From Candidatus Eiseniibacteriota bacterium (GTDB taxonomy: Bacteria; Eisenbacteria; RBG-16-71-46; JABDJR01): a DNA stretch of 64,000 nt. Positions 1-17,200 of the stretch are shown piece after piece. Each line of letters starts with the position of its first letter. The stretch's first letter is position 1. Both the position numbers and the translations under genes were made by a program. The stretch lies in the NCBI GenBank assembly GCA_963762255.1, contig CAVXKA010000001.1, positions 32,001 through 96,000 of the forward strand, given 5' to 3'. The notes below the pieces were generated by a model. That model worked only from the letters and a program-made list of their open reading frames with translations, did no database searches and was not told where the DNA came from.

Positions 1-549
1 CCGCTGCCGCCCGGATGGTTCAACACCGACATCGTCCTGCACCTCGGCGTGCTCGACGCGTCCGGCGTGGGCACCGTCTACTCGCAGGTGAACGGCGGCG
101 TCTGGCTCCGCGGCGGGCCTCTGCGCTTCGACACGCGCGCCGACCACTCCCTGGACGGCTGGTACACCGTGAAGGCGTACAGCAAGGACGCCGCCGGCAA
201 CCAGGAGCCTACGGCACAGACGATCGAGTTCGGCATCGACACCCTGCCTCCTACGGCCGTCGCCGCGGCTCCCGCCGTGACGCGCCCGGGCCGGCCGGCG
301 ACGCTTCACTTCACAGTGCGCGATCGCGCGCCGGGGTCTGGTCAGGCGCGAGCGCGAATCGTCGTCTTCGACCGCCGCGGCCGGCGGGTCCTCCGGCTCG
401 CCGCGGCTCCGGTCGTCGTCGGCGCGCCGGCTACCCGGAGCTTCGTCTGCCACCTGTCGCCGGGACGCTACCGCTATCAGGTCATCGCGATCGACGGGGC
501 CGGCAACCGCAGCGTCCGGCCGGCCACGGACAGCCTGGTGGTCAGATGA
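1..549 (+). CDS. 3' part of a secreted protein with Ig-like (OmpL47-type) repeat and basic C-terminal Ig/FlgD-like domain (5'-truncated by window)
   Basis: Frame +1 is open from base 1 (PLPPGWFNTDIVL...). Motifs YSKDAAGNQE and DTLPP; C-terminal CHLSPGRYRYQVIAIDGAGN...LVVR*. Stop overlaps the next ATG (ATGA at 546-549). Confidence 0.7.
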   Translation, partial: PLPPGWFNTDIVLHLGVLDASGVGTVYSQVNGGVWLRGGPLRFDTRADHSLDGWYTVKAYSKDAAGNQEPTAQTIEFGIDTLPPTAVAAAPAVTRPGRPATLHFTVRDRAPGSGQARARIVVFDRRGRRVLRLAAAPVVVGAPATRSFVCHLSPGRYRYQVIAIDGAGNRSVRPATDSLVVR

Positions 550-3500
550 GCCGCGGCAAACGGACCTTTGCGCGGCCGCGGCCGGCGGCGGCGGTCGCGA
601 TCCTCGTCGTGCTGGTCTTCTTGCTCTGGTGCGGCGGAGCCCAGGCGTCCCCACCCAACTTCGTCTACGCCCCCGGAGGCGACGGCTGGTTCTGGCAGAA
701 CCCGATCTGGCCGGCGCCGAACGACTTCAGCTTCGTCGACCGTGACACCGGGTGGGCGGTAGGCAAGCACGGCGCCATCCTGCACAGCATCGACGGCGGG
801 TCGTCGTGGGGGACCCAGCGTTCCCCCGTCACCGCCGACCTGCTGGGGGTCGACTTCTCCTCGGCGCTCGCCGGGCTGGCGGTCGGCGCGAACGGCACGC
901 TCCTGCGCACCGGTGACGCCGGCGTGACGTGGACGGCCGGGAGCCTGCCGGGAGCCGGCGACCTCACGGCCGTCCTGGCGCGCACCGGTCTCGACGCCTG
1001 GGTGGTCGGCGCGAACGGCCTCATCGCCCGGACGAGCGATGGGGGCAGCACCTGGCACGAGCAGCCCTCCGGGACGAGCGTCACGCTGAGCGCGATCACG
1101 CTCGCACCCGACGCCTCACTCTGGGTCGCCGGAGCCACCGGCGTGATCCTGCGCAGCACCGACGGAGGCGCGTCGTGGTCGCGGCACGATGCTCCACTGC
1201 AGGAGGACCTGGTCGGCATCAGCTTCGGTAGCGGGGACACCGGCTGCGCGACGGGCGCCGAAGGAGCCATCTACTGGACCACCGACGCGGGCCTGACCTG
1301 GCGCATCATGCAGAGCAAGGGGGCAGCCTCGGCAGACGTGCTCTACTCAGCGGACTTCGTCGATCCGCTGCATGGTTGGGCCACGGGCGTCGGCGGGGAC
1401 GTGTTCCGCACGGACGACGGCGGCGCGACTTGGACCAAGCAGCCCACAGTGGCGAACATGCCCCTGCTGGATGTCACGATGATCGACGTACAGCAGGGAT
1501 GGGTGGTGGGACAGGGCCGCAACGTCCTGCACACGACCGACGGTGGCGGTACCTGGTCCCAGCAGTCGCTCCCGCCGGCCGTCACCAGCCTGTCCGGGAT
1601 CGCCGGCATCGACTCGTCGTCGGCCTGGGCCGTCGGCGCGCGACGGGATCATCATCCACACCTCCGACGGCGGCGTGACGTGGTCCCTGCAGCCGAAGTC
1701 GACGACGAAGGGTCTCACGGACGTCGCCTTCGTCGACGCGCAGCACGGCTGGGCGGTCGGCGACGGAGTCATCCTGGGGACAAGCAACGGCGGGCAGAGC
1801 TGGGGCGTCCAGTACACGGACAGCTACGTGACCCTTGCCTCCGTCTCCTTCGTGAACGCGCTCGAAGGCTGGGCCGTGGGCAGCAGCTGGAAGGCCGGCC
1901 ACCCGTACGTGCTCCACACGACGAACGGCGGGGCCACCTGGTCCGCGGCCGGCCAGTCGCTCCCCCACCTCGAATCGGTCACGTTCGCGGACGCCCAGCA
2001 CGGCTGGGCGGTCTGCGACGGGTTCTCCATAGACTCGGGACCGGCCAGCGCCGTGTACGCGACCAGCGACGGCGGCGTCACCTGGCAGGCCGGCGGCGTG
2101 GTCCCCGGGCTGCTGCAGGGCGTGACCTGCCTCGGCGCCGACCGGGTCTGGGCCGTCGGCGACGGTGGGACGCTCGAGTACTCGCCGGACGGGGGCGCTC
2201 ACTGGATGACCCGGACCGGTCACATCTCGCGACTCAATGACGTCTCCTTCTCCGGCCCGTCGACGGCGATCGCCGTCGGCGCCTCCGGCACGGTCATGCG
2301 CTCGTCGTCGGACGGGACCTTCTGGACGTCCGTGGGCCCGCCGACGAGGGGAGAGTTCTCCGAAGTCGAGCTCGCCGGCGCCGACGCGGGCTGGATCGGT
2401 GGAAGCGACGGCAGTCTGTATCGCAGCACGGACGGCGGCTCCTCGTGGTCGCTGGTCCCAGGGACGAAGCCGCTCGCCCTCGGCACGCTGCGCGCCGTCG
2501 CGTGCGTCGACGACCAGACGGCGTGGGCGACCGGATCGGACGGCACCGGGTCGATCGTCCACACGACCGACGGGGGCCACACCTGGGTGCGCCAGTACTC
2601 CGGGGAGCTGCACACCTCGGGCACGGGGTTCGAATGGCCCTCGGCCATCGCGTTCCCGACGGCGGACTCCGGCTGGGTGGTGGGGGACTCGGGGCTGATC
2701 CTCCACACCGGGGACGGCGGGCAGACCTGGTCGAAGCAGTCCTACGGCGACGACCGGCTGCAGAGCGTCGCGTTCGCAGACGACCACAACGGCTGGGCGG
2801 TCGGCAACTACGGAGCCATCCTCCACACCACCGACGGGGGCGCGACCTGGGTGAGGCAGACGGCGCCGACCGTGGCCGGCACGTCGCCGTGGTACTTCAG
2901 CGTCGCCTGCACCGACTCCGCCAACGCCTGGATCGTGGGCACCGGCGGCGCCATCATGCACACCAGTGACGGGGGAGCCAGCTGGCGACAGCAGACGTCC
3001 GGCATCGGCTGGGATCTGTACAGCGTGACGTTCACCGACGCCTCCACAGGCTGGGCGGTCGGCGACTGGTGGATCCTTCGCACCGTGGACGGCGGCCTGA
3101 CCTGGGAACGGCTGCAGCTGGACCCACCGGTGCGGCTCGCGAGCGTCAGCTTCGCGGATGCGCGCAATGGCTGGGCAGCCGGCGCGCAGGGAGTGCTGCT
3201 GCGCACCACCGACGGAGGGTCGACGTGGAAGGCGCAGGACACGGGGCTCGGCGCCGACACCGATCTGCGCGCGGTCACCGCGGCGAACACGTACACGGCC
3301 TGGGCCATCACGCCGAACCTGATCCTGCACTGCGGCGACAGCGGCCGTCCCACGGGAAGCGTGGACACGACCGACACCACCGCCCCCATCACGACGGCGG
3401 CGGGGATCCTCGACGGATGGAGCAGGACCGCGTTGGCGATCGACCTCGAGTCACATGACGGGGACGGCGTCGCCTACACGGAATGGCGCCTTGACGGCGG

Positions 3501-3924
3501 GGGCGCCGGCTGGACGGTGGGCAACCACGTCGTCGTGGACCGCCAGGGACGGACCATCCTCTCCTACCGCTCAGTCGACAACCGAGGGAACATCGAGGCC
3601 ACGCGGACGGCAGTGATCGACATCGACGGCCTGCCGCCGGCGACGGCCGCGAGCTCCGCTCTCCGCGTCCGCAGACTGGCGACGGCTACGTTCAAGGGCC
3701 GGCTGACCGACCCTGCCGCCCCCACCTGCGCCGTGCGCCTGCAGATCCGGCGAGCGGGCAAGATCGTGAGGACGGTGGATCTCGGCGCCAAGGCTCCGGG
3801 GACGATCGCCGTCCGTTGGCGCTGTCGTCTGGCGCGCGGCAAGTACACGTACCGCTTCCTGGCGACCGATCTTGCCGGTAACCCGCAGAGTACCGCTACC
3901 TCAAAGACGCTGACCATCCGCTGA
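546..3924 (+). CDS. Secreted Ycf48/BNR (Asp-box) repeat beta-propeller protein with C-terminal Ig-like domains; one frameshift at ~1640
   Basis: Signal peptide MSRGKRTFARPRPAAAVAILVVLVFLLWCGGAQA. Many GWAVG..G.ILHT.DGG.TW repeats continue from ORF 15..2240 into ORF 1543..3924. Confidence 0.85.
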
Positions 3925-3975
3925 CTTGCGCGAGATCGCTTCGCCCTCGCGCTCTCAGAGCGTAGACTGACGCCC

Positions 3976-4957
3976 ATGGCCGATCCGACTCGAAGGCATC
4001 CACTTCCTGGTCACCTACCGGTGCACCTACGCGTGCGACCACTGCTTCGTGTGGGGGTCGCCGGACGCCGAGGGGACGATGACGCTGGCGCAGCTCACGA
4101 GCGTCATCGACCAGGCCGCGGAGCTGGGGCTCGCCGACGTCTACTTCGAAGGCGGCGAGCCCACGCTCGCTTACCCCATCGTGCTCGCGGCGGCGAAGCA
4201 TGCCCGCGAGCGCGGCTTGGACGTCGGCATCGTCAGCAACTGCTTCTGGGCGACGTCCATCGCCGACGCAAAGATCTGGCTGGCGCCCCTCGCCGAGCTC
4301 GGCCTCGCCGACCTCTCGCTCTCGTCCTACGCCTACTTCGTCGAGGACGCGGACGAGGAACGCCTGCGCAACGCCGTCCTGGCTGCGCAGGACCTCGGTA
4401 TGCCGGTAGGTGTGCTCGAAGTGGGCGCACCCGCTGAGATCGGCGTTTCCGACGCCTGCTCCGGCGACGTCTGCGAGGTGATGCACAAGGGGCGCGCGGC
4501 CGTCGCGCTCGCGCCGGCCAAGGCCTCGCGGCCGCCCGAGACGCTCACCACCTGCCCCTTCGAGGACCTTGCCGACCCGGGCCGCGCCCACGTCGGCCCG
4601 GACGGAGAACTGCAGGTATGCCAGGGCATCAGCGCCGGCAACGTCTTCGCCGCAGGCGACGGGCCGCCGGCGCCCGACGACGTCGCGGCCCCGCGCGCAG
4701 GCGGCCTCGCCGCCGTGCTCGACGCGTACGACCCGCACACCCGCCCCGTCATCCGCGACATCCTCGCCGGCGGCCCCTGGGCCCTCGCCCAGGCCGTCGG
4801 CCACACGCCGGAGCGTCCCTTGTACGCCGACGAATGCCATCTGTGCTACGAAGTCCGTGCGGCGCTGCGCCGCGCCGGCCGCTTCCCCGAAGTGGTCGCG
4901 CCGGGCCAGTGCTACGCCGAGAACGAGCCCAAGGAGGGGGAAGACCATGGCGTCTGA
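3976..4957 (+). CDS. Radical SAM protein with C-terminal Cys-rich (SPASM/twitch-like) region; frameshift at ~3990
   Basis: In the frame of ORF 4049..4957 the upstream sequence reads GIHFLVTYRCTYACDHCFVWG (CxxxCxxC), then FEGGEP. C-terminal CP..., CQG and CHLC motifs. ATG 3976 is out of frame by one indel. Confidence 0.8.
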
Positions 4958-5387
4958 GTGCGAACGATTCTGGGACCGTGACAGCTACGCGATCGTCGGC
5001 CACGAGGGCAGCAAGAAGCCCTTCCCGAAGATCGCCTACGGGGCGCTCAAGGAGCGGGGCAAGACCGTCTACCCGGTCGACGAAGGCGGGGCCACGATCG
5101 ACGGCGACAAGTCGTATCCCGACTTCACAGCGCTGCCGGCCCCAGTCGAGGCGGCAGTGCTGGAGCTCCCCAAGGAGGAGACCGCCGCCTGGGTCGCCAG
5201 GGCGGCGGACGCCGGCGTCAAGGAGATCTGGATCCACCAGATGACCGACACACCCGAGGCGCTCGCCGAGGCCGAGAAGCGCGGCCTCAAGGTCATCACC
5301 GGCCACTGCGCGGTGATGTACAACAAGCCCGGCATGAGCATGCACGCGCCGCACCGCTGGATCTGGAAGCTCGTCGGCAAGTACTGA
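4947..5387 (+). CDS. CoA-binding domain protein (YccU-like)
   Basis: RBS AAGGAGG; YAIVG...K.VYPV...SYPDFTALPAPVE...WIHQ...GHCAVM fits the CoA_binding_2 pattern. Confidence 0.85.
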   Translation: MASECERFWDRDSYAIVGHEGSKKPFPKIAYGALKERGKTVYPVDEGGATIDGDKSYPDFTALPAPVEAAVLELPKEETAAWVARAADAGVKEIWIHQMTDTPEALAEAEKRGLKVITGHCAVMYNKPGMSMHAPHRWIWKLVGKY

Positions 5388-5519
5388 CGACCCACGATCG
5401 AACGCCGCCGCGCGCGATGGGGCGGGAGACCCATCCGTACATGGGCCTCCCGCCCGCGCCCGTACGGAACAAGGGCGGCGGACGCCTCCCGGCGCCCGCC
5501 GCCCTCAGGGGGACGAGGA

Positions 5520-5720
5520 TCAGCGCATCGTTTCGGGCGGCGTCGCCCGCTGCTTGGCCGGCAGGATCGCCACGATGATGAGGATCAGGATCGGGAAGAA
5601 GATGCAGAGGATGATCCAAAGGGCCCGGTTGAGATCCTTGCGGTCGACCATCCGCCACACGAGCCACAGGCAGATCACCCAGATGACGAACCAGATCGTC
5701 CCGTAGACTACCCAACTCAT
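5520..5720 (-). CDS. Small two-helix membrane protein (PLDc N-terminal-like)
   Basis: RBS GGAGG; 66 aa with two hydrophobic helices, ...RALWIILCIFFPILILII. Confidence 0.7.
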   Translation of the reverse strand: MSWVVYGTIWFVIWVICLWLVWRMVDRKDLNRALWIILCIFFPILILIIVAILPAKQRATPPETMR

Positions 5721-5920
5721 GTGATCGCCTCCTCCGAGTGCGGCCTCCGCCGATGGCGGCATGGCTGCTCACGGTGGGTCTACCCCCTCCGGGGGCAGAA
5801 TCCTTCGCGGCGAGACGTTGCCGTGACCGGAGCAGTGCGGGAAGACGCCGCCCGAGGCCTGCGCGACGTCTGCGCCGTCGCCGCCGTGCGGGGTGATGCG
5901 ATTCGGCGGCGAACGTCCAA

Positions 5921-5964
5921 GCGTACGTCCAGACACCCCATGGGGTGTTCAGGCGTACGCCTGA
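5921..5964. repeat. Nested palindromes (REP-like or operator-like)
   Basis: Perfect ACACCCCATGGGGTGT (5933-5948) flanked symmetrically by GCGTACG/CGTACGC (5921-5927, 5954-5960). A second perfect palindrome TCAGGCGTACGCCTGA lies at 5949-5964. Confidence 0.6.
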
Positions 5965-6125
5965 GCGTACCTGTGCCGACCGACTGCAGCTGGCGCCGTG
6001 CGAAACGCCCTTTGCCCTGCACACCCTTCGCAGGCGCGAACCAAGCGCCACGCGACCCAGGCCCGGAGGGACCTCAGTGTGAGGTGCTCCTGACGGCGCC
6101 CCTCACGTTGACTCCGCTGCGCCGG

Positions 6126-7798
6126 TCAATCGATCAGGCCGTCGGCGGCGGGGAGGTCCGGCGGCTGCGGAGGGATCTCGTCCTCGGGCAGGCCGCGGAC
6201 GTGCTCGAGGGCGCGCTCCGCGGCGGCCGCGCCCTCGCGCAGGCAGTCGCCGATGCCGATGCCGTGGTACGCGCCGCCGGCGAGCTCGATGCCCGGCACG
6301 CGGGCGACGGCGGCCTCGATGTGCCCGACGAGCTCGACGTGGCCGACGCGGTACTGCGGCATGCCGCGCGGCCAGCGGAAGATCTGCACGAACTCCGGCT
6401 CCGCCGAGATGCCCATGATCTCGCGCAGCTCGGCGCGGACCACGGCGGCCATCTCGTCGTCGTCCAGCTGGGCCGCCGCCTCGCGGCCGGCGCGGCCGAG
6501 GAAGCTGCGCAGCAGCACGTGGCCGTCGGGCGCGCGCCCGTCGAACTTGCTCGAGCTCCAGGTGGTCGCCATGACGGGGCGGTTCTCGGCGCGAGGCACG
6601 ACGAAGCCGAAGCCCTTGAGGTCGTGCCCCACCTGGTCGGCACGGTAGGCGACCGACGCCGTGGCCGTCGTCACGTACTCGATGGACGAGAGGTCGGCGG
6701 CGGCGAGCGGCGCGACCGGGCGCAGCAGGTCGCCGCTCGCCCACGCCGGAGTCGCGAGCACGACGGCGTCGGCCACCACGCGGGAGCCGTCGCTCAGCTG
6801 GAGCGCGAAGGCGCCCGACCCGGCGCGGGCGCCGCAGCCGGCGCCGCACTCGGCCATCGTCTTGACCCCGGTGCCGGGGTGCAGACGCTCGGCCGGCAGG
6901 GTCGCGACGATGGCGTCGCTCAGGTCCTGTAGCCCGCCCTTGAACGAGTAGAAGTAGGACTTCGGGCCGGGCGGCCTCTCGCCGGCGGTCGCGCCTGAGG
7001 CGCCACCCGGGGCGGCGGCGCCGGGGCCACGGCGCCGCCGCGCGCCGCCGCGGCCTTCTGGCGCGCCTTGCGGCGCTTCAGCATCGCGAGGATGAGGCTG
7101 CGGTGCTCGCGCTCCATGTCCAGGAACATCGGGAACGTCGCGCGCACGCTCATCTGCTCGGGGTCGCCGGCGTGGATGCCGGCGACGATGGGCTCGGCGA
7201 TGCGCGCCAGCGCCTCGTTGCCGAGCCGGCGGCGGACGAAGTCGCCGAGGCTCTCGTCGAGGGCCGAGCCGATGGCGCCCGTCGGCCCTCCGGTCGCCGC
7301 GCCGCCTCGCGGGAGCAGCAGGTCGAGGCCCATGCGGACCTTGCCCGGCCAGCTCATCAGGCCGCTCATCGCGAACGGGACCATGCGCGTCGGGACCATG
7401 AGGATGATGCCCTCGGGCAGCTCGTGCAGGCGTCCGCGGGTGTAGACGAAGCTCTTGCGGATGTCCTCGTTGCAGTCGAGGAACCGGTCGCCGATGCCGA
7501 CCTCGCGGGCGGCGGTGATCGGCCAGTGCTTCTCGATGATGGCCGAGTCCGGGCCGCCCTCGACGACGAACCCGTCCCTGCGGATGGTGTGGACCTTGCC
7601 GCCCAGGCGCGGGTCCTGCTCGTACAGCTGCCAGTCGACCGAGGGGTCCTGGGCGCGCGCCGCCTCGAGCACGCGCGCCGCGCCCAGCCCGGCCATGCCG
7701 CCGCCGACGACGACGATCCGGAAGGGCCGGTCCGCCGCGTCGCCGGCCTGCCCGGCCGCGCCGTTCGGGATCGCTCTGGAGTCGTCCACCGCCGTCAC
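6126..7798 (-). CDS. hemY: Protoporphyrinogen/coproporphyrinogen oxidase (HemY/CgoX family); frameshift at ~6990-7050
   Basis: IVVVGGGMAGL FAD motif, LGGKVHT...EGGPDS, IAEPIVAGIHAGDP, FYSFKGGLQDL, RWPRGMPQYRVGH, GIGIGDC. GTG start overlaps the hemH stop. Confidence 0.9.
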
Positions 7799-8761
7799 CG
7801 GTGAGAGTGCGGGCCGTCCGGCTGCTTCAGAGCCCGCTCGACCGGCCGGTGCGCGAGGTAGTCGGTGACGACGTCGGCCAGCGCCTCGATGAAGAACGGC
7901 GAGTCGTTGGGGGCGTGTGAGCGCCGGTACTCGATGCCGAGGTCCTCGATCTGCTGGCGGAGCACGATGTCGAGGTCGAAGAGCGTCTCGACGTTGTCGC
8001 TCACGAACCCGACCGGCACGACGAGGATCTTCTTCCAGCCTTCTTCGGCGAGGACGCGCACCGCGTCGTCGGCCTCCGGCTCCATCCACTCGCCGCCGCC
8101 GCGACCCTTGCTCTGGAAGCCGAAGCGCCAGTCGCCCGGCATGATCTGGGGGACCAGCTGGGAGATGGTCTGCTGCAGCTGGTCAACGTACGGGTCGCCC
8201 TCCTCGATCGTCTCGACCGGCACGCTGTGCGCCGTGAAGAGGACAGCCCACTCGCTCACGTCGCAGCCGTCGAGCGCCTCGGCGACGCGGCGGCTGATGG
8301 TCCGCACGAAGCCCTGGCTCGCGTACCAGCCCTCGAGGAGCGGGACGTCGCGGCCGCGACCGCCGGTGGTGGGGTCCTCGGCCGCGGCCAGCTGCGCGAG
8401 GTACTTGCCGCTGGTCAGCCGCGAAGCGAAGGGACTCATGGGCAGCGCGACGACCTCGTGCGCGTCCAGCGAGCGGACGCAGTCGACGACGCCAGGCTGC
8501 GTGTAGAGGAAGCCGTGGCGGACGCGGATGGGGAACGCCGAGCTCCTGGACGAGCTTGGCCTGGAGCGCGAGCGCCTGGCGCGCGGTGATGGCCGGGAGC
8601 GGCGAGGCGCCGCCGATGAGCGCGTAGCGCTCCTTGACGGCGGCGACCGTCCCCGGATCTGGCGTGCGCCCCATGAGCCGCTCCAGGAACGGCACGATCT
8701 GCTCGGGGCTCTCCGGCCCGCCGTAGGCGAGCAGGGCGACGTCGACGAGGCTCTCGGTCAT
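7795..8761 (-). CDS. hemH: Ferrochelatase (HemH/CpfC); frameshift at ~8530
   Basis: LLAYGGP, RYALIGGASPL, LFTAHSVP, GDPYVDQ, FQSKG, VPVGFVSDNVETLFDLD across ORFs 8183..8761 and 7795..8439. Confidence 0.9.
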
Positions 8762-8779
8762 GCGTTCATCCTCCGGAGC

Positions 8780-9814
8780 TCAGATCGGGGCGGCCGAGAG
8801 CCGGTGCACGGCGTCGACCAGGTACTTGACGTTGTCCGGCGGCACCTGCGGGATGAGGCCGTGGCCGAGGTTGAAGATGTGCCCTGGGCGGCCGCCGGCG
8901 CGGCGCAGCACGTCGGCCACGCGCTCTTCGATGGCCTTGGGCGGTCCGAGGAGCGTGATCGGGTCCAGGTTGCCCTGGATGGCCACATCGCCGAGCTGAT
9001 CCCAGGCGCGGTCGAGCTCGATGCGCCAGTCCACGCCGTAGACGTCGCTGCCGGCCTTGCCGACCAGGTCGAGCATGGCCGAGGCGCCGTTGCCGAAGTA
9101 GATGAGCGGCGCCCCCAGGCCCTTCACGTTGTCCACCACGTAGCGCACGTGCGGCAGCACCAGCAGCTCGTAGTCGAAGGGGCTCAGCCAGCCGACCCAG
9201 GAGTCGAAGAGCTGCACCACCTGTGCGCCTGCGGCGATCTGCGCCTTGAGGTAGTCGACGACGACCTCGGAGATGACGCTCATGAGGCGCCCGAAGGTCA
9301 CCGGGTCCTCGTACATGAGCTTCTTCACGTGCGCGTAGTTGCGCGAGTGGCCACCCTCGACGATGTAACTCGCGAGCGTGAACGGGGCGCCGGAGAAGCC
9401 GATGAGCGGGATGCCCGGGTCGAGCTCGTGGCGCACGAGCTTGATGGTGTCCATCACGTACTGCAGGTCGGCCGCGGCGTCGATGCCGTGGACGCCCTCC
9501 AGGTCGCGGGCGCCGCGGATGGGCCGCTCGATGACGGGCCCGTCGTCCTTGCTGAAGTGGAACCCGATCCCCATCGGCTCCAGCGGCAGCAGGATGTCGG
9601 CGAACACGATGGCCGCGTCCAGGTCGAAGCGGCGGAGCGGCTGCAGCGTGACCTCGGCCGCCACGTCCGGCCGCCGGCACATCTCCACGAAGCTCATCTT
9701 CTCGCGGATGGCGCGGTACTCGGGCAGGTAGCGGCCGGCCTGGCGCATGAGCCAGACGGGCGTCGCGTCGACGGGTTTGCGGGCGCAGGCATCGAGGAGG
9801 CGCATGGGCATCAC
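8780..9814 (-). CDS. hemE: Uroporphyrinogen decarboxylase
   Basis: PVWLMRQAGRYLPEY, AAIVFADIL, LIGFSGAPFTLASY, QGNLDP, HIFNLGHG. Confidence 0.97.
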   Translation of the reverse strand: MMPMRLLDACARKPVDATPVWLMRQAGRYLPEYRAIREKMSFVEMCRRPDVAAEVTLQPLRRFDLDAAIVFADILLPLEPMGIGFHFSKDDGPVIERPIRGARDLEGVHGIDAAADLQYVMDTIKLVRHELDPGIPLIGFSGAPFTLASYIVEGGHSRNYAHVKKLMYEDPVTFGRLMSVISEVVVDYLKAQIAAGAQVVQLFDSWVGWLSPFDYELLVLPHVRYVVDNVKGLGAPLIYFGNGASAMLDLVGKAGSDVYGVDWRIELDRAWDQLGDVAIQGNLDPITLLGPPKAIEERVADVLRRAGGRPGHIFNLGHGLIPQVPPDNVKYLVDAVHRLSAAPI

Positions 9815-9854
9815 CTGAGTAGATGGAACAGGCTTACAGGGACGGTGATTGTAG

Positions 9855-9879
9855 CAAACGGGAGCCCTTGGGCTCCCGT
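9855..9879 (-). terminator. Hairpin/terminator between the small Zn-finger gene and hemE
   Basis: Stem ACGGGAGCC/GGCTCCCGT with a 4-nt loop and a short U run on the minus strand. Confidence 0.5.
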
Positions 9880-9959
9880 CGACGGAGGGGACGCAGGCCG
9901 GCGCCGGTTCATTAGTCGCAGCATGCCAACTAACTGGCGGTGCACCGCAGGGTCACCGG

Positions 9960-10193
9960 CTACTCGGCCGGCCTGTATCCTTCGCCCAGCGCCGCCTTGC
10001 GGCACGTGTGGCACACCGTGATCATCTCGCAGCGCTGCGGCGAGACGACGTGGTAGCGAAGCGCCCTGGCGCTGAGCTTGGCGCCGCACAGACCGCAGTG
10101 GGCGCTGTCGATGGAGCGGACTGTGGCAGGTGGACTGGGCGCGACCGCGTCGCGACCATCCGACTGAGCCGGCATCGGGTGGACCTGGCCCAT
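9960..10193 (-). CDS. Small 77-aa putative zinc-finger protein
   Basis: Strong RBS GGAGGGAGGA; CGLC...CHTC pair of CxxC motifs. Confidence 0.65.
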   Translation of the reverse strand: MGQVHPMPAQSDGRDAVAPSPPATVRSIDSAHCGLCGAKLSARALRYHVVSPQRCEMITVCHTCRKAALGEGYRPAE

Positions 10194-10435
10194 GGAGTCC
10201 TCCCTCCGATGTGCTGCAGCTTCCGGGGCGGGGGCCGGCAAGCTCATGCAACGTACACACAACCTGCCCCAAATCGGCCGCGCGATAACGCTCCCGGGCA
10301 CCGTGCGGCCTAGCCGGCGTTGCCACCGGCAGCGACACTTCGTCCCGCCGGTCCGTGGCGTGCCGTACCCCAGTCACAGTAGGATGACGGCAGGGCACGC
10401 GGGCCTCCCCGGTCCGCACCAAGGAGGAGATGGGT

Positions 10436-11816
10436 ATGAGACGTCTGTTCGCCGCGGCGACCGTGTGCGCCGCAATCCTGCTGATCACCGGCGTGGCCGC
10501 GGCAGCGCCGCGGTACGCGCCCAACACCGCCGGCCTCAAGGCGCACAACGCCGTCGCCCGGGACCACGGGCAGCGAGCACCGGTCGGCTACGAGCCGCTG
10601 GCGCGGCGCATCCTGAGCGGCACCGGCACCATCAACCTCAACGTGTACTCGTGGAACAGTGTCCCGGAGGTCGGCGCCACCGTGGACTGGTACGTCTTCA
10701 CCGACACCGGTGACGGCACCGGCGAGGGCACGACCGACGGCGACGGGCACGTCGATCTGACCGGGGTCCCTGCCGCGAACAGCGACAACGGCGAGATCTC
10801 CGTCGCCCTCGACGCCACCGACGGTGGCACCTACGACCTGTCGAACATGTCTTGGGGCGACGCCGGCATGACCGGCGCTCTGCAGGCCGGCCGCCTCCCG
10901 GTGACTCTCGGGCGCAGTTCCCAGAGACGGGTGGAATACGTGGGACTACGCGCGCGTGTGGCTCTGGGCGCACCAGTCCAGTGGTAGCCAGGTGCATCAG
11001 GCGGCGTCCAACATCGCCCGCTCGGGCTCCTTCGCGGACGGCTACGTCCGCACGATCCAGACCGGTCCGGAGACGCTCGGCAGCGGCGCTGCGTACTTCT
11101 GGGACAACGAGGGTGTGGAGCTGGCGGTCGACGGCATCCAGGTCGCACCCGGCCAGACCGCCACATCCGGACCGACCGCCTACGAGGCAGACGCGCAGCG
11201 ACTGCTGATGGGGTACTGGGGCTCCGGCAAGCCGGGCTCGGCTGCCTGGGTCGTCATGGACAACTACCCCGACGGCTGGGTGAACGACATCTCCGGTGTG
11301 GCCGACTACCCGGCGACCGCAAAGCAGAAGTACTTCGGCTCCTTCACCTGCGACGGCGCCCAGTACGACTCCAAGAAGATCACTATCCCCAGCACGGCGG
11401 CCCCAGGCTACGCCTACTGGATCGACGCGAGCCACACCTCCGGACCTCTCGACCTCTGGGCGTCGTTCCAGGTCTGCACGCTCAAGCCGAGCAAGTCGGC
11501 GGTGTCTCCCAGCGCATCGATCTCACTCAGCGGTGTCGTGCCGATCAAGGGCCACTACGGCAGCAAGAGGGGCACGCCCAAGTACGTGACCATCTACAAG
11601 ACGACGTCGGCCAAGACCGCCAAGGCCCAGCCCGCCGTCAGCGGCGGCAAGACGGTGAAGGGCTGGTCCAAGGTCGGCAGAGTCCGCACGGACGGCCTCG
11701 GCAAGTACAAGCTCTCGACGCGGCCCGGCAAGACCGCGTGGTATTGCGTGTGGTACGCGGCCGACGCGTGGTACTGGGGCGCCTGGACGTCGGTGGCCAA
11801 GGTGACAGTCAGGTAG
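10436..11816 (+). CDS. Secreted hypothetical protein, paralog A; frameshift at ~10920-10950
   Basis: RBS AAGGAGGA, signal peptide MRRLFAAATVCAAILLITGVAAA; continues in ORF 10956..11816; similar to the downstream gene. Confidence 0.75.
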
Positions 11817-11857
11817 CAGCAAGCACCAGAGATCGCGCGCGGAGGCGCGAACGACAC

Positions 11858-11893
11858 CGAGGGCCGGGGCTGTGGAAGCAGCCCCGGCCCTCG
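11858..11893 (+). terminator. 15-bp perfect hairpin between the paralogs
   Basis: CGAGGGCCGGGGCTG-tggaag-CAGCCCCGGCCCTCG, no U-tract. Confidence 0.6.
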
Positions 11894-11971
11894 CCCTCGT
11901 TCGCATCCTGCCCGCGATAGGATGACGAAGGAGAGCGCGGGAGGGCGCCTCCGGTCCTGGAGGAGGAACCA

Positions 11972-13349
11972 ATGACTCGACCGTCCGTCCTGCTCGGCGT
12001 TTGCCTGCTTGGGCTCGCGCTGCTGCCCGCCGCGGCGCTCGCTGCAGCCCCGCGTCCGGGGTCACCGGCCGTCAGCGCAGGTGCCGTCACCCGGCTTCTG
12101 GCGCCCGTGAGGGTGACCGCACCCGCCGCGAGCGCGTCGATCGGACCCGTGCGAGCCGCCGCGGGCGCCGTCATCCACGGCAGCATCACAAACCCCAACG
12201 GGTTCGCTGTCCTGCCGGCCAGGATCCACTGGATGTCGCCGGGCGGCAGTCCGCGTACCGGCTCGATGCTTGCGGACCAGTCCGGCGCCTACGCCTTCTC
12301 GGCAGTCCCCGCCGCCGCCGGAAACGGAGAGCTCTGGGCCGTCTTAGAGCCGGACAACGGCGCGTGGGAACGCGGCCACTACGGGATGACCTGGGCGGAC
12401 GGCGACGACCTGACGGTCGATCTGCGCGCCGGCGACGTCAGCGTCGCAATCTACCGCGGAGGCCCTTGGTACGCGTGGAAGAACGCCGTGCTCCAGGTCT
12501 GGACGAAGCCTGCGGACGGCAACGGGACCTGCTACACCTTGTCGGATATCAAGAGCACCGACGTAGAGGGCGATGGCTTCGCCGCCGAGCTGCCGGTGGA
12601 AGCAGGCACGGGGGATGGCGCAGTCGTCTACTTCTGGTCCAACGAGGGGATGGAGGTGCCGTTCGCCGGGGAGGTGCAGCCCGGCTCCTCGTCCGTGCCG
12701 AGCCTGACGGCATGGGAGGAATCCGCCAGCCGCGCCCGCGTGCTCGAGCCGCTGTGGAGCTCCGGACGGCCCGGCAAGGCCGTCATCCTCAACCTCGCCG
12801 GCTTCGACACGGGATGCGATCAACCAGATCCGCGGCCAGTCCGACTACCCGGGCGGCGCGACCTGGAAGAACATCACGCGCATGACCATGAAGGAGTCCG
12901 AAGCAAATCTCAAGGTCACTATCCCCAGCACGGCCAAGCCTGGCTACTTCTACTGGCTGGCCGCCGACCACATGAACGGGATGGGAGCCCTCAGGCTCCT
13001 CGTCCCCTTCCAGGTCGCCACCCTGAAGCCGACTAGCGCGAGCGTCGTCCGCGGGAGCTCGGTGAGTCTCAGCGGTGTCGTGCCGGTCAACGGCCACCGG
13101 GGCACCAAGCGCGGCACACCCAAGACGGTGACGCTGTACAAGGGGCCGAACTCCCAGCCGCAGCCCCGCACGTGGGAACCATCGCGCTCCGACTACATGA
13201 AGGTGGGCAGCTTCCGCACCGACGGCTACGGCAGGTTCCACACCTCCGCCGTGCGAGTGAACGGCACGACCACGTTCATCGTGCGCTACCCGGGAGACGC
13301 GACCTACTGGCGCGCCTACACCACGCCGGTGCTCGTGAAGGTGAAGTAG
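11972..13349 (+). CDS. Secreted hypothetical protein, paralog B; frameshift at ~12815
   Basis: RBS GGAGGAGG, signal peptide. Shares YFWxNEG, WxSG(K/R)PG, TIPSTAxPGYxYW, FQVxTLKP, SLSGVVPxxGHxGxKRGTPK and RTDGxG with paralog A. Confidence 0.75.
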
Positions 13350-13452
13350 GCTCGAAGCGCTCGTGGGTCCGACGAGGGCCGGCGCCGCTCAGCGCGGCGC
13401 CTCCCAGCTCGCCGACTCAACCTCGGTGATTCCACCCGCGCTCCCCGCCGAC

Positions 13453-14451
13453 TCACCGCCGTCGCGCCCCACCGCGCGCTACCGCGGAGACGATCAACCG
13501 CTCTACCAGATCCTCGTAGCTGATGCCATGCGCGCGCGCGGCCATCGGAACGAGGCTCGTCTCCGTCATGCCTGGAACGGTGTTGGCCTCCAGGAAGTAC
13601 GGCCGATTCTCCGGGGTCAGCCGGAAGTCGACCCGTGCCACGCCCGCGCATCCCAAGGTCGCGAACGCGCGCTCGCCCAGGCGCGAGACCTCGGCGGCGA
13701 CCTCCGCCGGCAGCTCCGCCGGCACGACGTACCGCGTCTGCCCCTTCGTGTACTTGTGACGGTAATCGTAGAAGCCCGCCTCGGGGATGATCTCCACGAC
13801 CGGCAGCGCCTCGCCGTCCAGCACCGCCACCGTGACCTCGCGACCGGGGATGAACTCTTCCACCAACACCGCGCCGTATTGAAACGCGTCGTCCAGCGCC
13901 GCCTCCAACTCGGAGGCTTCGACCACGATGTGTACACCGACGCTCGAACCCTGAGCGTTCGGCTTCACAACCACCGGATAGCCGCCCAGCGCCTGCACGT
14001 CCACGCCAGCGGCATCGCGCCGCTCCAGGAGAATCTCTCGCGGGGAAGGCACACCCGCCGCGCGCAGCAATGCCTTCGCTCTCGACTTGTCCATGGCGAG
14101 CGCGCTCGCCAGCATCCCCGAACCGCTGTACGGCACGCCGGCCAGATCGAGCAGCGCCTGAAGCGTCCCGTCCTCTCCGATCCCTCCGTGCAGCGCCACG
14201 AACACCGCGTCGCACGTTCCGATCTCGGGGTTCTCGGCCAGAACCAGGCTTCGCTCTTCCGCTTCCGGCGGCGGGGCCTCACCGATGCGATGCTGTGCGA
14301 GATGATCCAGCTCCAGCCGCCGCCCTGCCGCGGGGTCGAGCGGCACCACCGCGTGCCCGCGCGCGGAAAGCGCCTTCGCCACCCCGCGTCCGGTGGCAAG
14401 ACTCACGTCCCGCTCCATACTGCTGCCGCCCATGAGCACGACCACCCGCAT
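13453..14451 (-). CDS. ddl: D-alanine--D-alanine ligase
   Basis: VVVLMGGSSMERDVSLATG, ALHGGIGEDG, GSSVGV, FYDYRHKY, EANTVPGMTETSL. Confidence 0.96.
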   Translation of the reverse strand: MRVVVLMGGSSMERDVSLATGRGVAKALSARGHAVVPLDPAAGRRLELDHLAQHRIGEAPPPEAEERSLVLAENPEIGTCDAVFVALHGGIGEDGTLQALLDLAGVPYSGSGMLASALAMDKSRAKALLRAAGVPSPREILLERRDAAGVDVQALGGYPVVVKPNAQGSSVGVHIVVEASELEAALDDAFQYGAVLVEEFIPGREVTVAVLDGEALPVVEIIPEAGFYDYRHKYTKGQTRYVVPAELPAEVAAEVSRLGERAFATLGCAGVARVDFRLTPENRPYFLEANTVPGMTETSLVPMAARAHGISYEDLVERLIVSAVARGGARRR

Positions 14452-14452
14452 G

Positions 14453-14953
14453 CTAGCTCTCGCCTCCCTCGATCGAAACCAATGCCACCGCTGAAGCCGC
14501 CGCGCCCTCACCGCGTCCGATGAAGCCCATACCTTCGGTGGTCGTGGCTTTCACCGAGACGCATTCGCCCGGCACGCCGAGAGCTTCCGCCAACCGCGCC
14601 CGCATCGCCTCGACGTGCGGTGCGATCTTCGGGTGCTCGAGGTAGAGCGTGCAGTCCACCTGCTCGGCGCGCGCGCGTCGTCCCGCCAGGAGCCCCACCG
14701 TCCGGCGCAGGAGATCGATGCTGTCCGCGCCGCGCCATTGTTCGTCCGATGGCGGGAAGTGCCGGCCGAGATCCCCCAGCGCGACCGCGCCCAGGAGCGC
14801 GTCGATCACCGCGTGGGTGAGTACGTCGGCGTCGGAGTGTCCCTCCAATCCCTGGCCGTGCGGGACGCGCACCCCGCCGAGAATCAGCGGCCGCCCGGTG
14901 ATGAAGCGATGCGCGTCGAACCCGTGTCCCACGCGAAACGGCAACCCGCTCAT
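14453..14953 (-). CDS. ispF: 2-C-methyl-D-erythritol 2,4-cyclodiphosphate synthase
   Basis: RVGHGFDAH, GHSDADVLTHAVIDALLGA, KATTTEGMGFIGRGEG. Confidence 0.97.
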   Translation of the reverse strand: MSGLPFRVGHGFDAHRFITGRPLILGGVRVPHGQGLEGHSDADVLTHAVIDALLGAVALGDLGRHFPPSDEQWRGADSIDLLRRTVGLLAGRRARAEQVDCTLYLEHPKIAPHVEAMRARLAEALGVPGECVSVKATTTEGMGFIGRGEGAAASAVALVSIEGGES

Positions 14954-15005
14954 GATCGCCTCCGCCCGTTCCGCGGGCCGCGGTCCCCTCCGACCCCGGC
15001 GCCGC

Positions 15006-15707
15006 TCATTCCCGATACCCCCGCATGCGCAGGATCGCCTCGGCGAGGAGGAGATCGCTCGGCACGGTGATCTTGATGTTGGTCACTTCGCCCTCGACCC
15101 AGGACACCGGATGATTGATGCGCAAGACGAGGGACGCTTCGTCGGTGCCCCTGAAGTGCTCCGCCCGCGCGCGCTGATGCGCGTACTCGAGGACCGGCCG
15201 ATGAAAGCCCTGGGGCGTCTGCACCGCGAGCAGCTCGGAGCGATCCACGTAGGCCTTGAGCCAGGTTTCATATCCCACGCGGGCCACGCTGTCACGCAAC
15301 GGAAGCGCAGGCACCAGCGACTCGCCGCCGTCCAGCCGGTCGAGCACGCGGCGGATCAGATCGCGCGACACCAGCGGCCGCGCCGCATCGTGAACGACGA
15401 TCCAGTGCGGCTTGCCGCCCAGCGCATCGATGCCGTTGAACACCGAGTCCTGCCGCTCCGCTCCACCCGCCACCAGATCGACGTCGCGCTGCAAGTGCAG
15501 CGGCGCGATCACCTGCTCTCGGAACAGGGCCTCGCTGCCGGGGGGCACCACGACCACGCGCTCCACGATCTCGTGGAAGTCGTCGAAGGCCAGCAAGGTC
15601 CACGCAAGAAGAGGATGACCCAGGAGAGGCACCAACGCCTTGGGCTCCGGGCGCCCCAGACGTTCGCCGCGCCCAGCGGCCACGATCACCAGACCGACGT
15701 CGTTCAT
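15006..15707 (-). CDS. ispD: 2-C-methyl-D-erythritol 4-phosphate cytidylyltransferase
   Basis: AAGRGERLG..PK, GGAERQDSV, VHDAARP, VQTPQGF, NIKITVPSDL. Confidence 0.95.
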   Translation of the reverse strand: MNDVGLVIVAAGRGERLGRPEPKALVPLLGHPLLAWTLLAFDDFHEIVERVVVVPPGSEALFREQVIAPLHLQRDVDLVAGGAERQDSVFNGIDALGGKPHWIVVHDAARPLVSRDLIRRVLDRLDGGESLVPALPLRDSVARVGYETWLKAYVDRSELLAVQTPQGFHRPVLEYAHQRARAEHFRGTDEASLVLRINHPVSWVEGEVTNIKITVPSDLLLAEAILRMRGYRE

Positions 15708-17200
15708 CGCTCGCGTCCTCCAGGCATCTGTGCGTGCGCCCGCCGAGGCCCACCCGCCGACCCGCGTCCACCGCCCGCCATCCCTCGTCCGCCACCCGGC
15801 GCGTCGCGATGCCCCGACCGCGGCGCCCCCGATATCCCCAGCGCCTTCTCCAACGCCTCGTCCACCCGCGCCACCGGCACGAGCGTGAGCGGGGCCGCCT
15901 CCATTTCCTTGACCGCGCGGGCCGGAACGATCGCCTGCGTGAAGCCGAGCTTGGACGCCTCGTGCAGGCGATGCTGCAATTGCCCTACCCGACGGACCTC
16001 GCCGCCCAAACCGACCTCGCCCACCACCACTGTACGCCCGTCCAACGGAATGTCGTGATACGAGGAGGCGACCGCCATCGCCACCGCGAGGTCGATCGCG
16101 GGCTCGACGACTCGGAACCCTCCCGCCACGCTCACGAACACGTCGCTGGTCGAGAAGTCCAACCCGGCGCGCTTCTCGAGCACGGCCAACAGCACCGCGA
16201 GCCGGCGCGCGTCCACCCCGGTGGCCACGCGACGCGGCACGCTGAACCCGGCGCTGCCGACCAGTGCCTGCACTTCGAGCAGGATCGGCCGCGTCCCCTC
16301 CAGAGCGGGCGAGACCGCCGATCCCGACATGCCCTCGCGGCGTTCCTCCAATAGGAACTCCGAAGGATTCGAGACCGCTCGTAATCCATCGTCCCCCATC
16401 TCGAACACGCCGACTTCGTGGGTCGGACCGAACCGGTTCTTGGCCGCCCGGAACAGTCGATAGTGATGATAGCGGTCGCCTTCGAGGTAGAGCACCGCGT
16501 CCACCATGTGCTCCATGACGCGCGGGCCGGCCACCATGCCTTCCTTGGTCACATGCCCGACCAGGATGACCGGGATCTGCGAGCGCTTGGCGAGTTCCAG
16601 AAAGTAGAGCGTGTTGTCGCGCACCTGGGCCACGCTTCCCGGCGCGCTGTCCGCCTCCGCGCTGTGCAGCGTCTGCACCGAGTCGACGATGATCACGTCC
16701 GGAGAAGCGGCCTCCAACGCCGGCGCCACCGTCTCCACCCGGGTCGAAGCGAGCACTTGCAGGCGCTCGTCGATCCCGCCGAGTCGCCGGCTGCGCAAAC
16801 GGAGTTGGCGCTCCGATTCCTCCGCGCTGACGTAGAGCACCACGAGACCCTGCGCGGCGTAGGCCGACGCCGCCTGCAAGAGCAGCGTGGACTTCCCCAC
16901 TCCGGGATCGCCGGCCACGAGCACGAGGCTCCCCGGCACCAACCCTCCGCCCAGCACGCGGTCGAACTCCTCGATGCCGGTGCGATAGCGGGGGAGGTTC
17001 TCGGCGTCGATGTCGCCCAGCGCCTTGACCGTCGGGGACTGCGCACCGGCCGGTGAACCGCCCCAGGCGCGCCCTCGCGTGGGGGCTTCGACCTGGCGCT
17101 CCTCGAGCGAGTTCCAGGCCTTGCAGCCGGGACACTGTCCCATCCACTTGGGGGCGATGTGGCCGCACTCGCGGCAGACGAAGCGCGACTTGACCTTCAT
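15704..17200 (-). CDS. radA: DNA repair protein RadA/Sms
   Basis: CRECG..KWMGQCPGC zinc finger, GDPGVGKSTLLLQ, KNRFG motif. Confidence 0.97.
   Translation of the reverse strand: MKVKSRFVCRECGHIAPKWMGQCPGCKAWNSLEERQVEAPTRGRAWGGSPAGAQSPTVKALGDIDAENLPRYRTGIEEFDRVLGGGLVPGSLVLVAGDPGVGKSTLLLQAASAYAAQGLVVLYVSAEESERQLRLRSRRLGGIDERLQVLASTRVETVAPALEAASPDVIIVDSVQTLHSAEADSAPGSVAQVRDNTLYFLELAKRSQIPVILVGHVTKEGMVAGPRVMEHMVDAVLYLEGDRYHHYRLFRAAKNRFGPTHEVGVFEMGDDGLRAVSNPSEFLLEERREGMSGSAVSPALEGTRPILLEVQALVGSAGFSVPRRVATGVDARRLAVLLAVLEKRAGLDFSTSDVFVSVAGGFRVVEPAIDLAVAMAVASSYHDIPLDGRTVVVGEVGLGGEVRRVGQLQHRLHEASKLGFTQAIVPARAVKEMEAAPLTLVPVARVDEALEKALGISGAPRSGHRDAPGGGRGMAGGGRGSAGGPRRAHAQMPGGRER

Follow-up and report, generated by a model that had tools for sequence, protein, structure and literature searches.

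A polycationic C-terminal Ig-like tail on secreted proteins of Thermoleophilia-type actinobacteria, a candidate envelope-retention tag

Several domain families of monoderm bacteria serve to hold secreted proteins on the cell wall without a covalent bond. A review on wall display tabulates SLH, CWB2, LysM, GW/SH3-8 and WXL modules for this task and also mentions SLAP, and the accessible part of this review lists no immunoglobulin (Ig)-like wall-binding module (PMC5817068). Here we describe an Ig-like module of about 105 amino acids, hereafter the tail, that ends two secreted proteins encoded at the left end of a 64,000-nucleotide stretch of an assembly labeled Candidatus Eiseniibacteriota bacterium (GCA_963762255.1, contig CAVXKA010000001.1, or C1, positions 32,001 to 96,000; this whole stretch is called the window). 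By analogy, the tail may do the same job as the five tabulated families, which is to keep Sec-exported proteins on the wall non-covalently. With the WXL domain it shares its C-terminal position, the clustering of its genes, and its restriction to a lineage. SLH, LysM, and SH3-type folds differ from the Ig/PKD sandwich of the tail, and a Pfam scan (E ≤ 1) of the two window proteins returned no SLH, CWB2, LysM, GW, or WXL domain.

The strongly basic regions of Lactobacillus S-layer proteins and of SLAP-type domains belong to surface proteins that are acidic elsewhere, and they are believed to attach to anionic wall polymers by electrostatic forces. The tail, a basic region on an acidic protein, would resemble them by analogy only, as sequence and organisms are unrelated. 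Sortase substrates of the LPXTG type end in an LPxTG motif, a hydrophobic segment, and a basic tail, an arrangement that the window proteins do not show. The C-terminal domain of the type IX secretion system (T9SS; PF18962) and the FlgD_ig domain (PF13860) are, like the tail, beta-sandwiches of about 80–100 amino acids that form the very C-terminal end of proteins with a signal peptide and occur with highly varied passengers. FlgD_ig even shows weak sequence similarity to the tail (E 1.6e-3 for the second window tail; up to 26.4 bits, against a cut-off of 27, in family member P0127). However, the window tails fall below the thresholds of both models, the lineage that owns them is actinobacterial, and the T9SS tails of the assembly form a separate set. 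Big_13 (PF19077) and OmpL47-type (NF047446) domains have in common with the tail both the fold and the terminal signature Y.Y.v.A.D.AGN. The Big_13-type relatives are tandem, internal, and acidic, whereas the tail is single, terminal, and positively charged (net +3 to +28), and neither window tail reaches the cut-off for Big_13.

The tail as a protein family

Protein 1 enters the window with its 3′ end (1–549, plus strand). The whole gene (G000:C1:30714-32549) codes for 611 amino acids and begins 1,286 bases before the window with a signal-peptide-like N-terminus, followed by DGDxVVW-type repeats, Big_13/OmpL47 Ig domains, and the tail. Tail 1 (217–546, net +13) makes up the last 110 amino acids of the open frame. 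The Ig-like domain ahead of it (58–219) matches NF047446 with E 6.4e-7 (residues 20–73 of P0001), and a 27.2-bit match to Big_13 (residues 39–81) also belongs to this preceding domain and not to the tail. Protein 2 begins with an ATG at 546 that overlaps the stop codon of protein 1 (ATGA). Its N-terminal part (546–1637, plus strand, frame 3) contains a signal peptide and Ycf48-like BNR propeller blades, and its C-terminal part (1642–3924, frame 1) contains more BNR blades, an OmpL47-type Ig domain (3460–3624; NF047446, 49.7 bits with a cut-off of 40; residues 640–694 of P0002), tail 2 (3601–3921, net +15), and the stop codon. The PSII_BNR family matches the two parts with E 2e-36 and 1.1e-55, respectively. 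The two parts are separated by a frame break in a GC-rich run (1638–1641, frame 3 to frame 1), located by alignment with the intact orthologue P0003. This protein of 1114 amino acids matches positions 600–1637 in frame 3 with its residues 19–358 and positions 1642–3921 in frame 1 with its residues 360–1114 (66% identity to the C-terminal part).

The two tails are 35% identical over their last 107 residues (E 1e-8), and the likeness extends upstream across the preceding Ig domain (31% over 185 amino acids, E 1e-10). The first-pass annotation, made from the letters alone, had noticed that the proteins ending at 549 and 3924 share a basic C-terminal module of about 100 amino acids behind an Ig-like repeat, and this alignment bears it out. 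Profile A1 matches tails 1 and 2 with E 2.7e-46 and 3.8e-48, values which they reach by construction since A1 was built from them. The motif first written down for the module (D.LPP...AT......D...C.L..G.Y.Y...A.D.AGN......L.(V/I)R*) holds in an alignment of 16 tails, where C75, G80, Y82, A88, D90, A92, G93, and L104 are invariant. Likewise, the report of the first-pass annotation that these proteins lack an LPxTG motif or transmembrane anchor agrees with our check of proteins 1 and 2 and of two further secreted window proteins, paralogues A and B. None of the four contains a C-terminal LPx[TSA]G motif or a C-terminal hydrophobic segment; their strongest hydrophobic 19-mers are N-terminal only, and all four have signal-peptide-like N-termini.

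Neither Pfam nor NCBIfam has a model for the tail. Tail 2 scores 18.8 bits with FlgD_ig and 19.6 bits with Big_13, for which the cut-off is 27 in either case. A superfamily relation to Big_13 is nevertheless likely, because the tails of some family members pass this cut-off (P0154, 40.5 bits; P0148, 33.2 bits; P0127, 31.7 bits). Word-index searches with single tails retrieved the orthologues P0003, P0004, and P0005 only, as the matches to P0006 and P0007 were spurious. Weak single-tail matches in 60 relatives of the assembly were also set aside, since on inspection they were FlgD itself and tails of the T9SS/FlgD_ig type. A profile of four tails, run against 1.84 billion representative proteins, gave 4520 matches at E ≤ 1e-3, and giant repeat proteins dominate the head of this list. 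When the best 150 of these 4520 proteins were scored domain by domain, 12 near-full C-terminal modules (64–146 bits) stood apart from 205 internal modules (at most 38 bits, median 14.7), and Pfam assigns the internal repeats to Big_13, Big_3_2, and similar families. The two groups also differ in charge. The 12 C-terminal tails carry net charges of +10 to +27, and in the 10 of them whose passenger part exceeds 100 residues the passenger has an isoelectric point of 4.1–5.0, the remaining two being short fragments. In contrast, the 205 internal relatives range from −19 to +2, and none reaches +5. Internal occurrence, which the first-pass annotation had named as speaking against a surface-display module, thus takes the form of distant, acidic Big_13-type repeats only.

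For membership in the family we propose a score of at least 46 bits to profile A2 (the 16-tail alignment), an end at the stop codon, and a strongly positive net charge. Among all fetched database proteins, 28 modules reach 46 bits and 24 of these are exactly C-terminal. Genomic loci were collected from one genome per species with the pattern YA[TV]DxAGNxQ and an alignment of six tails, which gave 176 relatives, and the best 77 of the 176 were analyzed. They contain 89 modules with 52–130 bits and net charges of +3 to +28 (median +17), and 88 of these modules reach to within one residue of the stop codon. The expectation that the module is always C-terminal therefore became "almost always". The consensus of these 88 modules has three conserved aspartates and one conserved cysteine; the cysteine is present in 84% of the sequences, and 57 of the 88 contain exactly one. 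Lysine or arginine occupies 12 alignment columns in at least 60% of the sequences and is the last residue in 75 of the 88. The tail follows an ID..P junction, which is a normal Ig–Ig joint, and there is no conserved cleavage motif or linker. On these sequence criteria the tail forms a separate family, uncatalogued in Pfam and NCBIfam. A full-text literature search, judged on listings and abstracts, found no published description of a polycationic C-terminal Ig-like tail.

The passengers are very different from each other. A Pfam scan of 73 of the 89 open reading frames identified propellers (Ycf48/BNR, FG-GAP, RCC1, NHL), TIG domains, CarboxypepD_reg and cadherin-like domains, and peptidases of five kinds (papain-type C1 with a lectin-like domain, A4, S8, M10, and C39-like), although most passengers are not peptidases. 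In several loci two or more tail genes are adjacent, as they are in the window.

To model the fold we used AlphaFold2 with alignment A2. For tail 2 this calculation gave an eight-stranded sandwich (pLDDT 83, pTM 0.72). The nearest solved structure is the PKD domain of an M14-like peptidase (4xed, Z 11.7, root-mean-square deviation (rmsd) 2.1 over 93 residues), and the PKD-like domain of ColH (4u7k) follows with Z 10.7. The best Foldseek match to the model has E 5e-5, and the ESM Atlas offers, as a lead, generic Ig clusters only (score 0.84). In a single-sequence prediction for window positions 3388–3921 the N-terminal half came out poorly (pLDDT 58.7), and Foldseek found no match to this model at E ≤ 1e-3. 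The predicted fold of the tail is a generic PKD/Ig sandwich.

Taxonomic range and origin of the tail genes

Nearly all of the best 77 loci come from records titled as metagenome-assembled genomes (MAGs) of Thermoleophilia, Actinomycetota, or Actinomycetes, with one Eubacteriales and one Slackia record among them. In each of five Thermoleophilia-labeled MAGs (G061–G065), 7–26 matches to the tail reach E ≤ 1e-5. When the class Thermoleophilia was sampled evenly, with at most 16 candidates scored per genome, 62 of 301 genomes had the tail, usually in many copies. Across the phylum it occurs in 4 of 301 genomes, G065 itself included. These frequencies are in line with the taxonomic restriction for which the first-pass annotation had suggested a check. 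To our knowledge, Thermoleophilia-type actinobacteria are known almost only from metagenomes. Elsewhere in the phylum, a genome of about 1.5 Mb (G633, loci L101 and L105) has 11 tail matches, some of them on open frames of more than 3000 amino acids, and represents a second lineage with an expansion of the tail family.

The assembly that holds the window contains just two copies of the tail, both in a block that is foreign to it. This block comprises the first 45.4 kb or so of contig C1 (G000:C1:1-45443), including window positions 1–13,443, and its right edge was placed at 13444–13448 by composition, synteny, and contigs from public sequencing runs. The GC content of the block is 0.69–0.75, compared with a genome mean of 0.667 (standard deviation 0.024). 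Except for short matches to hem genes, the block has no DNA synteny in the relatives of the assembly. On the other side of the edge, window positions 13,444–16,000 are 99% identical to the end of contig C2, and the region from 20 to 36 kb is syntenic in the relatives. The HemE protein of the block is 95, 86, 85, 83, and 76% identical to HemE of the five Thermoleophilia-labeled MAGs, but just 43–55% identical to HemE of the assembly's relatives and 51% identical to the assembly's own second copy. The hem region has 84–86% DNA identity in G065. In public runs the junction region occurs at small shares only (at most 0.12), and run contigs of right-side relatives diverge left of approximately 13,375–13,448. 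This divergence agrees with the boundary, as weak evidence and not as proof of a chimera.

From composition and sequence identity we conclude that the block is Thermoleophilia-lineage DNA and not DNA of the organism that makes up the rest of the assembly. It was probably joined to the contig by misassembly, which makes the contig an assembly chimera; a transfer of 45 kb with duplicate housekeeping genes is less likely. The main organism is not actinobacterial, and its C-terminal tag system differs from that of the block. The whole assembly (93.6% completeness) has 33 matches to Por_Secre_tail (PF18962) at E ≤ 1e-3, and no sortase, SLH, or LCP protein was found in it. This envelope, with its 33 T9SS-type tails and without sortase, SLH, or LCP, was considered as the host context of the tail and dropped, since the block is foreign. 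Approximately 45 kb at the start of this contig thus belong to a different phylum, and inferences on the genes of the block from their "own genome" would be wrong.

Envelope retention and competing explanations

The relevant host context is therefore found in the five Thermoleophilia-labeled MAGs, each with a single sortase, two or more matches to LCP ligases, and no more than one SLH match, which is weak. Family membership, C-terminal position, the charge dichotomy, modular spread, taxonomic restriction, and fold are established above. From charge, position, and modularity we infer that the tail is a non-covalent envelope-retention tag, a reading to which we assign a probability of about one in two, because a single, terminal, polycationic domain has been shuffled onto many acidic extracellular passengers and has multiplied to dozens of copies in a monoderm lineage with LCP-attached wall polymers. 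The tail itself is a polycationic PKD/Ig-like beta-sandwich, which we regard as a strictly C-terminal offshoot of Big_13-type Ig repeats. Acidic passenger proteins would be exported by way of N-terminal Sec-type signal peptides, and the basic tail would bind anionic envelope polymers non-covalently and so keep the passenger on the cell. Likely ligands would be wall glycopolymers installed by LCP ligases, and one uncultured clade of Thermoleophilia-type actinobacteria would use the tail as its general tag for surface display. A more far-reaching version, in which the tail is the main surface-display system of this clade and a new wall-targeting domain with specific recognition of a lineage-specific anionic wall glycopolymer, seems to us possible but doubtful. 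In this version the lone cysteine, which is nearly invariant, might have a part in attachment.

Several observations weigh against envelope retention. Charge and position alone are no proof of anchoring, and the sortase in G061–G065 represents another anchoring route. As far as we know, LCP ligases are near-universal in the phylum, and their presence in these five genomes is therefore not discriminating. The recruitment of loci by a single peptide pattern, followed by ranking for similarity, favors typical members of the family. The C-terminal position also has exceptions: the sole one among the 89 genomic modules is L037 (3233–5638), where a C5-epimerase C-terminal domain comes after the module, and the four non-terminal database modules are P0163 and P0165, which continue for about 190 more basic, Ig-like residues, and P0180 and P0196, which continue for 62–79 residues. 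With 232 chains in the PDB at Z ≥ 8, the fold is generic. Finally, the pairing with signal peptides that the first-pass annotation had anticipated was clear in one set of proteins and partial in another: all seven complete database representatives have a signal-peptide-like segment by eye, while only 48 of 77 genomic frames closed at the 5′ end pass a hydrophobic-segment rule. Several of the failing frames evidently begin inside a domain and some have obvious signal peptides just below the threshold. Many of the failing frames may be frame-broken.

Of the other explanations, one that we consider unlikely takes the tail as an adhesion or substrate-binding module, comparable to a carbohydrate-binding module, whose basic sandwich would attach not to the cell's own wall but to anionic matter outside the cell, such as clay or humic surfaces, extracellular DNA, or acidic polysaccharides from plants or microbes. 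Among the structural neighbors are modules from glycosidases and collagenase, of the carbohydrate-binding and PKD kinds (4u7k; 8wac, Z 9.6; 2c4x, Z 9.4), many passengers are hydrolases, and the runs with relatives of the neighboring DNA are labeled as soil, sediment, and groundwater metagenomes, at small word shares only. However, no sugar-binding motif was identified in the tail and the structural matches are generic. The occurrence of one and the same tail on propellers of unknown function, TIG proteins, and five peptidase families fits a general localization tag better. It is also rather unlikely that the tail is simply the terminal unit of an Ig stalk, a structural domain whose charge balances the acidic passenger or aids solubility without any role in targeting. 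Such a domain would be consistent with the homology to common Big_13-type repeats, with the partial Big_13 matches on the tails of P0154 and P0148, with the generic fold, and with the fact that the tail always stands behind another Ig domain. Yet ordinary repeats are internal, tandem, and acidic (205 of 205 at net +2 or less), whereas members of the basic subfamily occur singly, at the end of the protein, and have been shuffled among unrelated passengers, with 7–26 copies per genome.

The match to the PKD domain of 4xed, which is the best structural match, and the presence of several secreted peptidases among the passengers would also suit a C-terminal pro-domain of the PPC/PKD type that helps in folding or wall passage and is then removed from the mature enzyme. 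This explanation appears improbable to us, as most passengers are not peptidases, the ID..P junction ahead of the tail offers no conserved site for removal, and the strong conservation of surface lysine and arginine columns would be left unexplained. The least supported rival, which we regard as hardly credible, is a T9SS-like secretion signal for an outer-membrane translocon of the assembly's main organism. The first-pass annotation had mentioned an export role of this kind, similar to that of the T9SS C-terminal domain. Fold class and position are indeed those of T9SS C-terminal domains, the C-terminal region of PorU is among the structural matches (6za2_B, Z 10.2, but with an rmsd of 7.6), and the assembly does contain PF18962 tails. 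However, neither window tail is one of these 33 matches (there is none at C1:32217-32546 or C1:35601-35921), the FlgD_ig score remains below the cut-off, the block derives from an actinobacterial lineage with sortase and LCP ligases, and single-tail queries of the 60 relatives of the assembly did not retrieve the tail family. The export role is thus not sustained.

If the envelope-retention reading is true, the tail defines the surface proteome of its clade and provides a simple rule for its prediction. Each genome has 7–26 secreted proteins with the tail, among them proteases and many propeller proteins whose role is unknown. Specific recognition of a glycopolymer, if true, would add a new domain–ligand pair beside SLH with pyruvylated secondary cell-wall polymer (SCWP) and CWB2 with polysaccharide II (PSII). 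The tail might also find use as a display or affinity tag. A curated family model is merited, since current libraries yield sub-threshold Ig matches only.

Paralogues A and B and other genes near the block edge

Paralogues A (10430–11816) and B (11972–13349) are both encoded on the plus strand and both frame-broken from frame 2 to frame 3. They are 46% identical over 151 amino acids (E 2e-37) and end in a second type of basic domain, located at 11484–11813 (net +18) in A and at 13017–13346 (net +13) in B. The first-pass annotation had stated that the paralogues at 10436 and 11972 end in a different basic domain with a similar terminal strand. The domain is indeed different, but the likeness of the strand is superficial, because hhalign detects no relation between this domain and the tail (probability 0.4%). 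The second domain is beta-rich, with a weak match to Big_3_5 (E 0.013). Of 101 class genomes, 11 have it as a terminal, basic domain (net +8 to +19), in 22 copies altogether, and each of these 11 genomes also contains the tail. These 22 copies look like whole-protein orthologues and not like a shuffled module. One copy of such a protein adjoins the hem genes in G065.

Broken frames recur throughout the block, as seen in protein 2, in paralogues A and B, in hemY, and in hemH. The hemY gene lies in two pieces (6126–6857 and 6920–8089) within window positions 6126–8761 on the minus strand, and hemH covers positions 122–315 of the Ferrochelatase profile only. This pattern of split genes suggests consensus indel errors or decay. 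In the same block, RecQ lacks its N-terminal helicase half and the RlmL match is found only at the start of an 809-amino-acid frame (L001 6659-8077, 9599-12028); both genes appear to be split by frame breaks.

Directly 3′ of protein 2 lies an open reading frame for 302 amino acids (4049–4957, plus strand) that matches no Pfam family at E ≤ 1e-5. The DNA of this region is 84% identical to a region beside the hem genes in G065. Next comes a CoA_binding_2 protein (within 4569–5387). To the right of the boundary, the first gene encodes a D-Ala-D-Ala ligase (13453–14511, minus strand). The native start of C1 (13444–16000 and 20001–36000) repeats G000:C2:1404987-1427581 with 99% and then 72–90% identity, and this repeat may reflect either a duplication or the presence of a second strain in the assembly.

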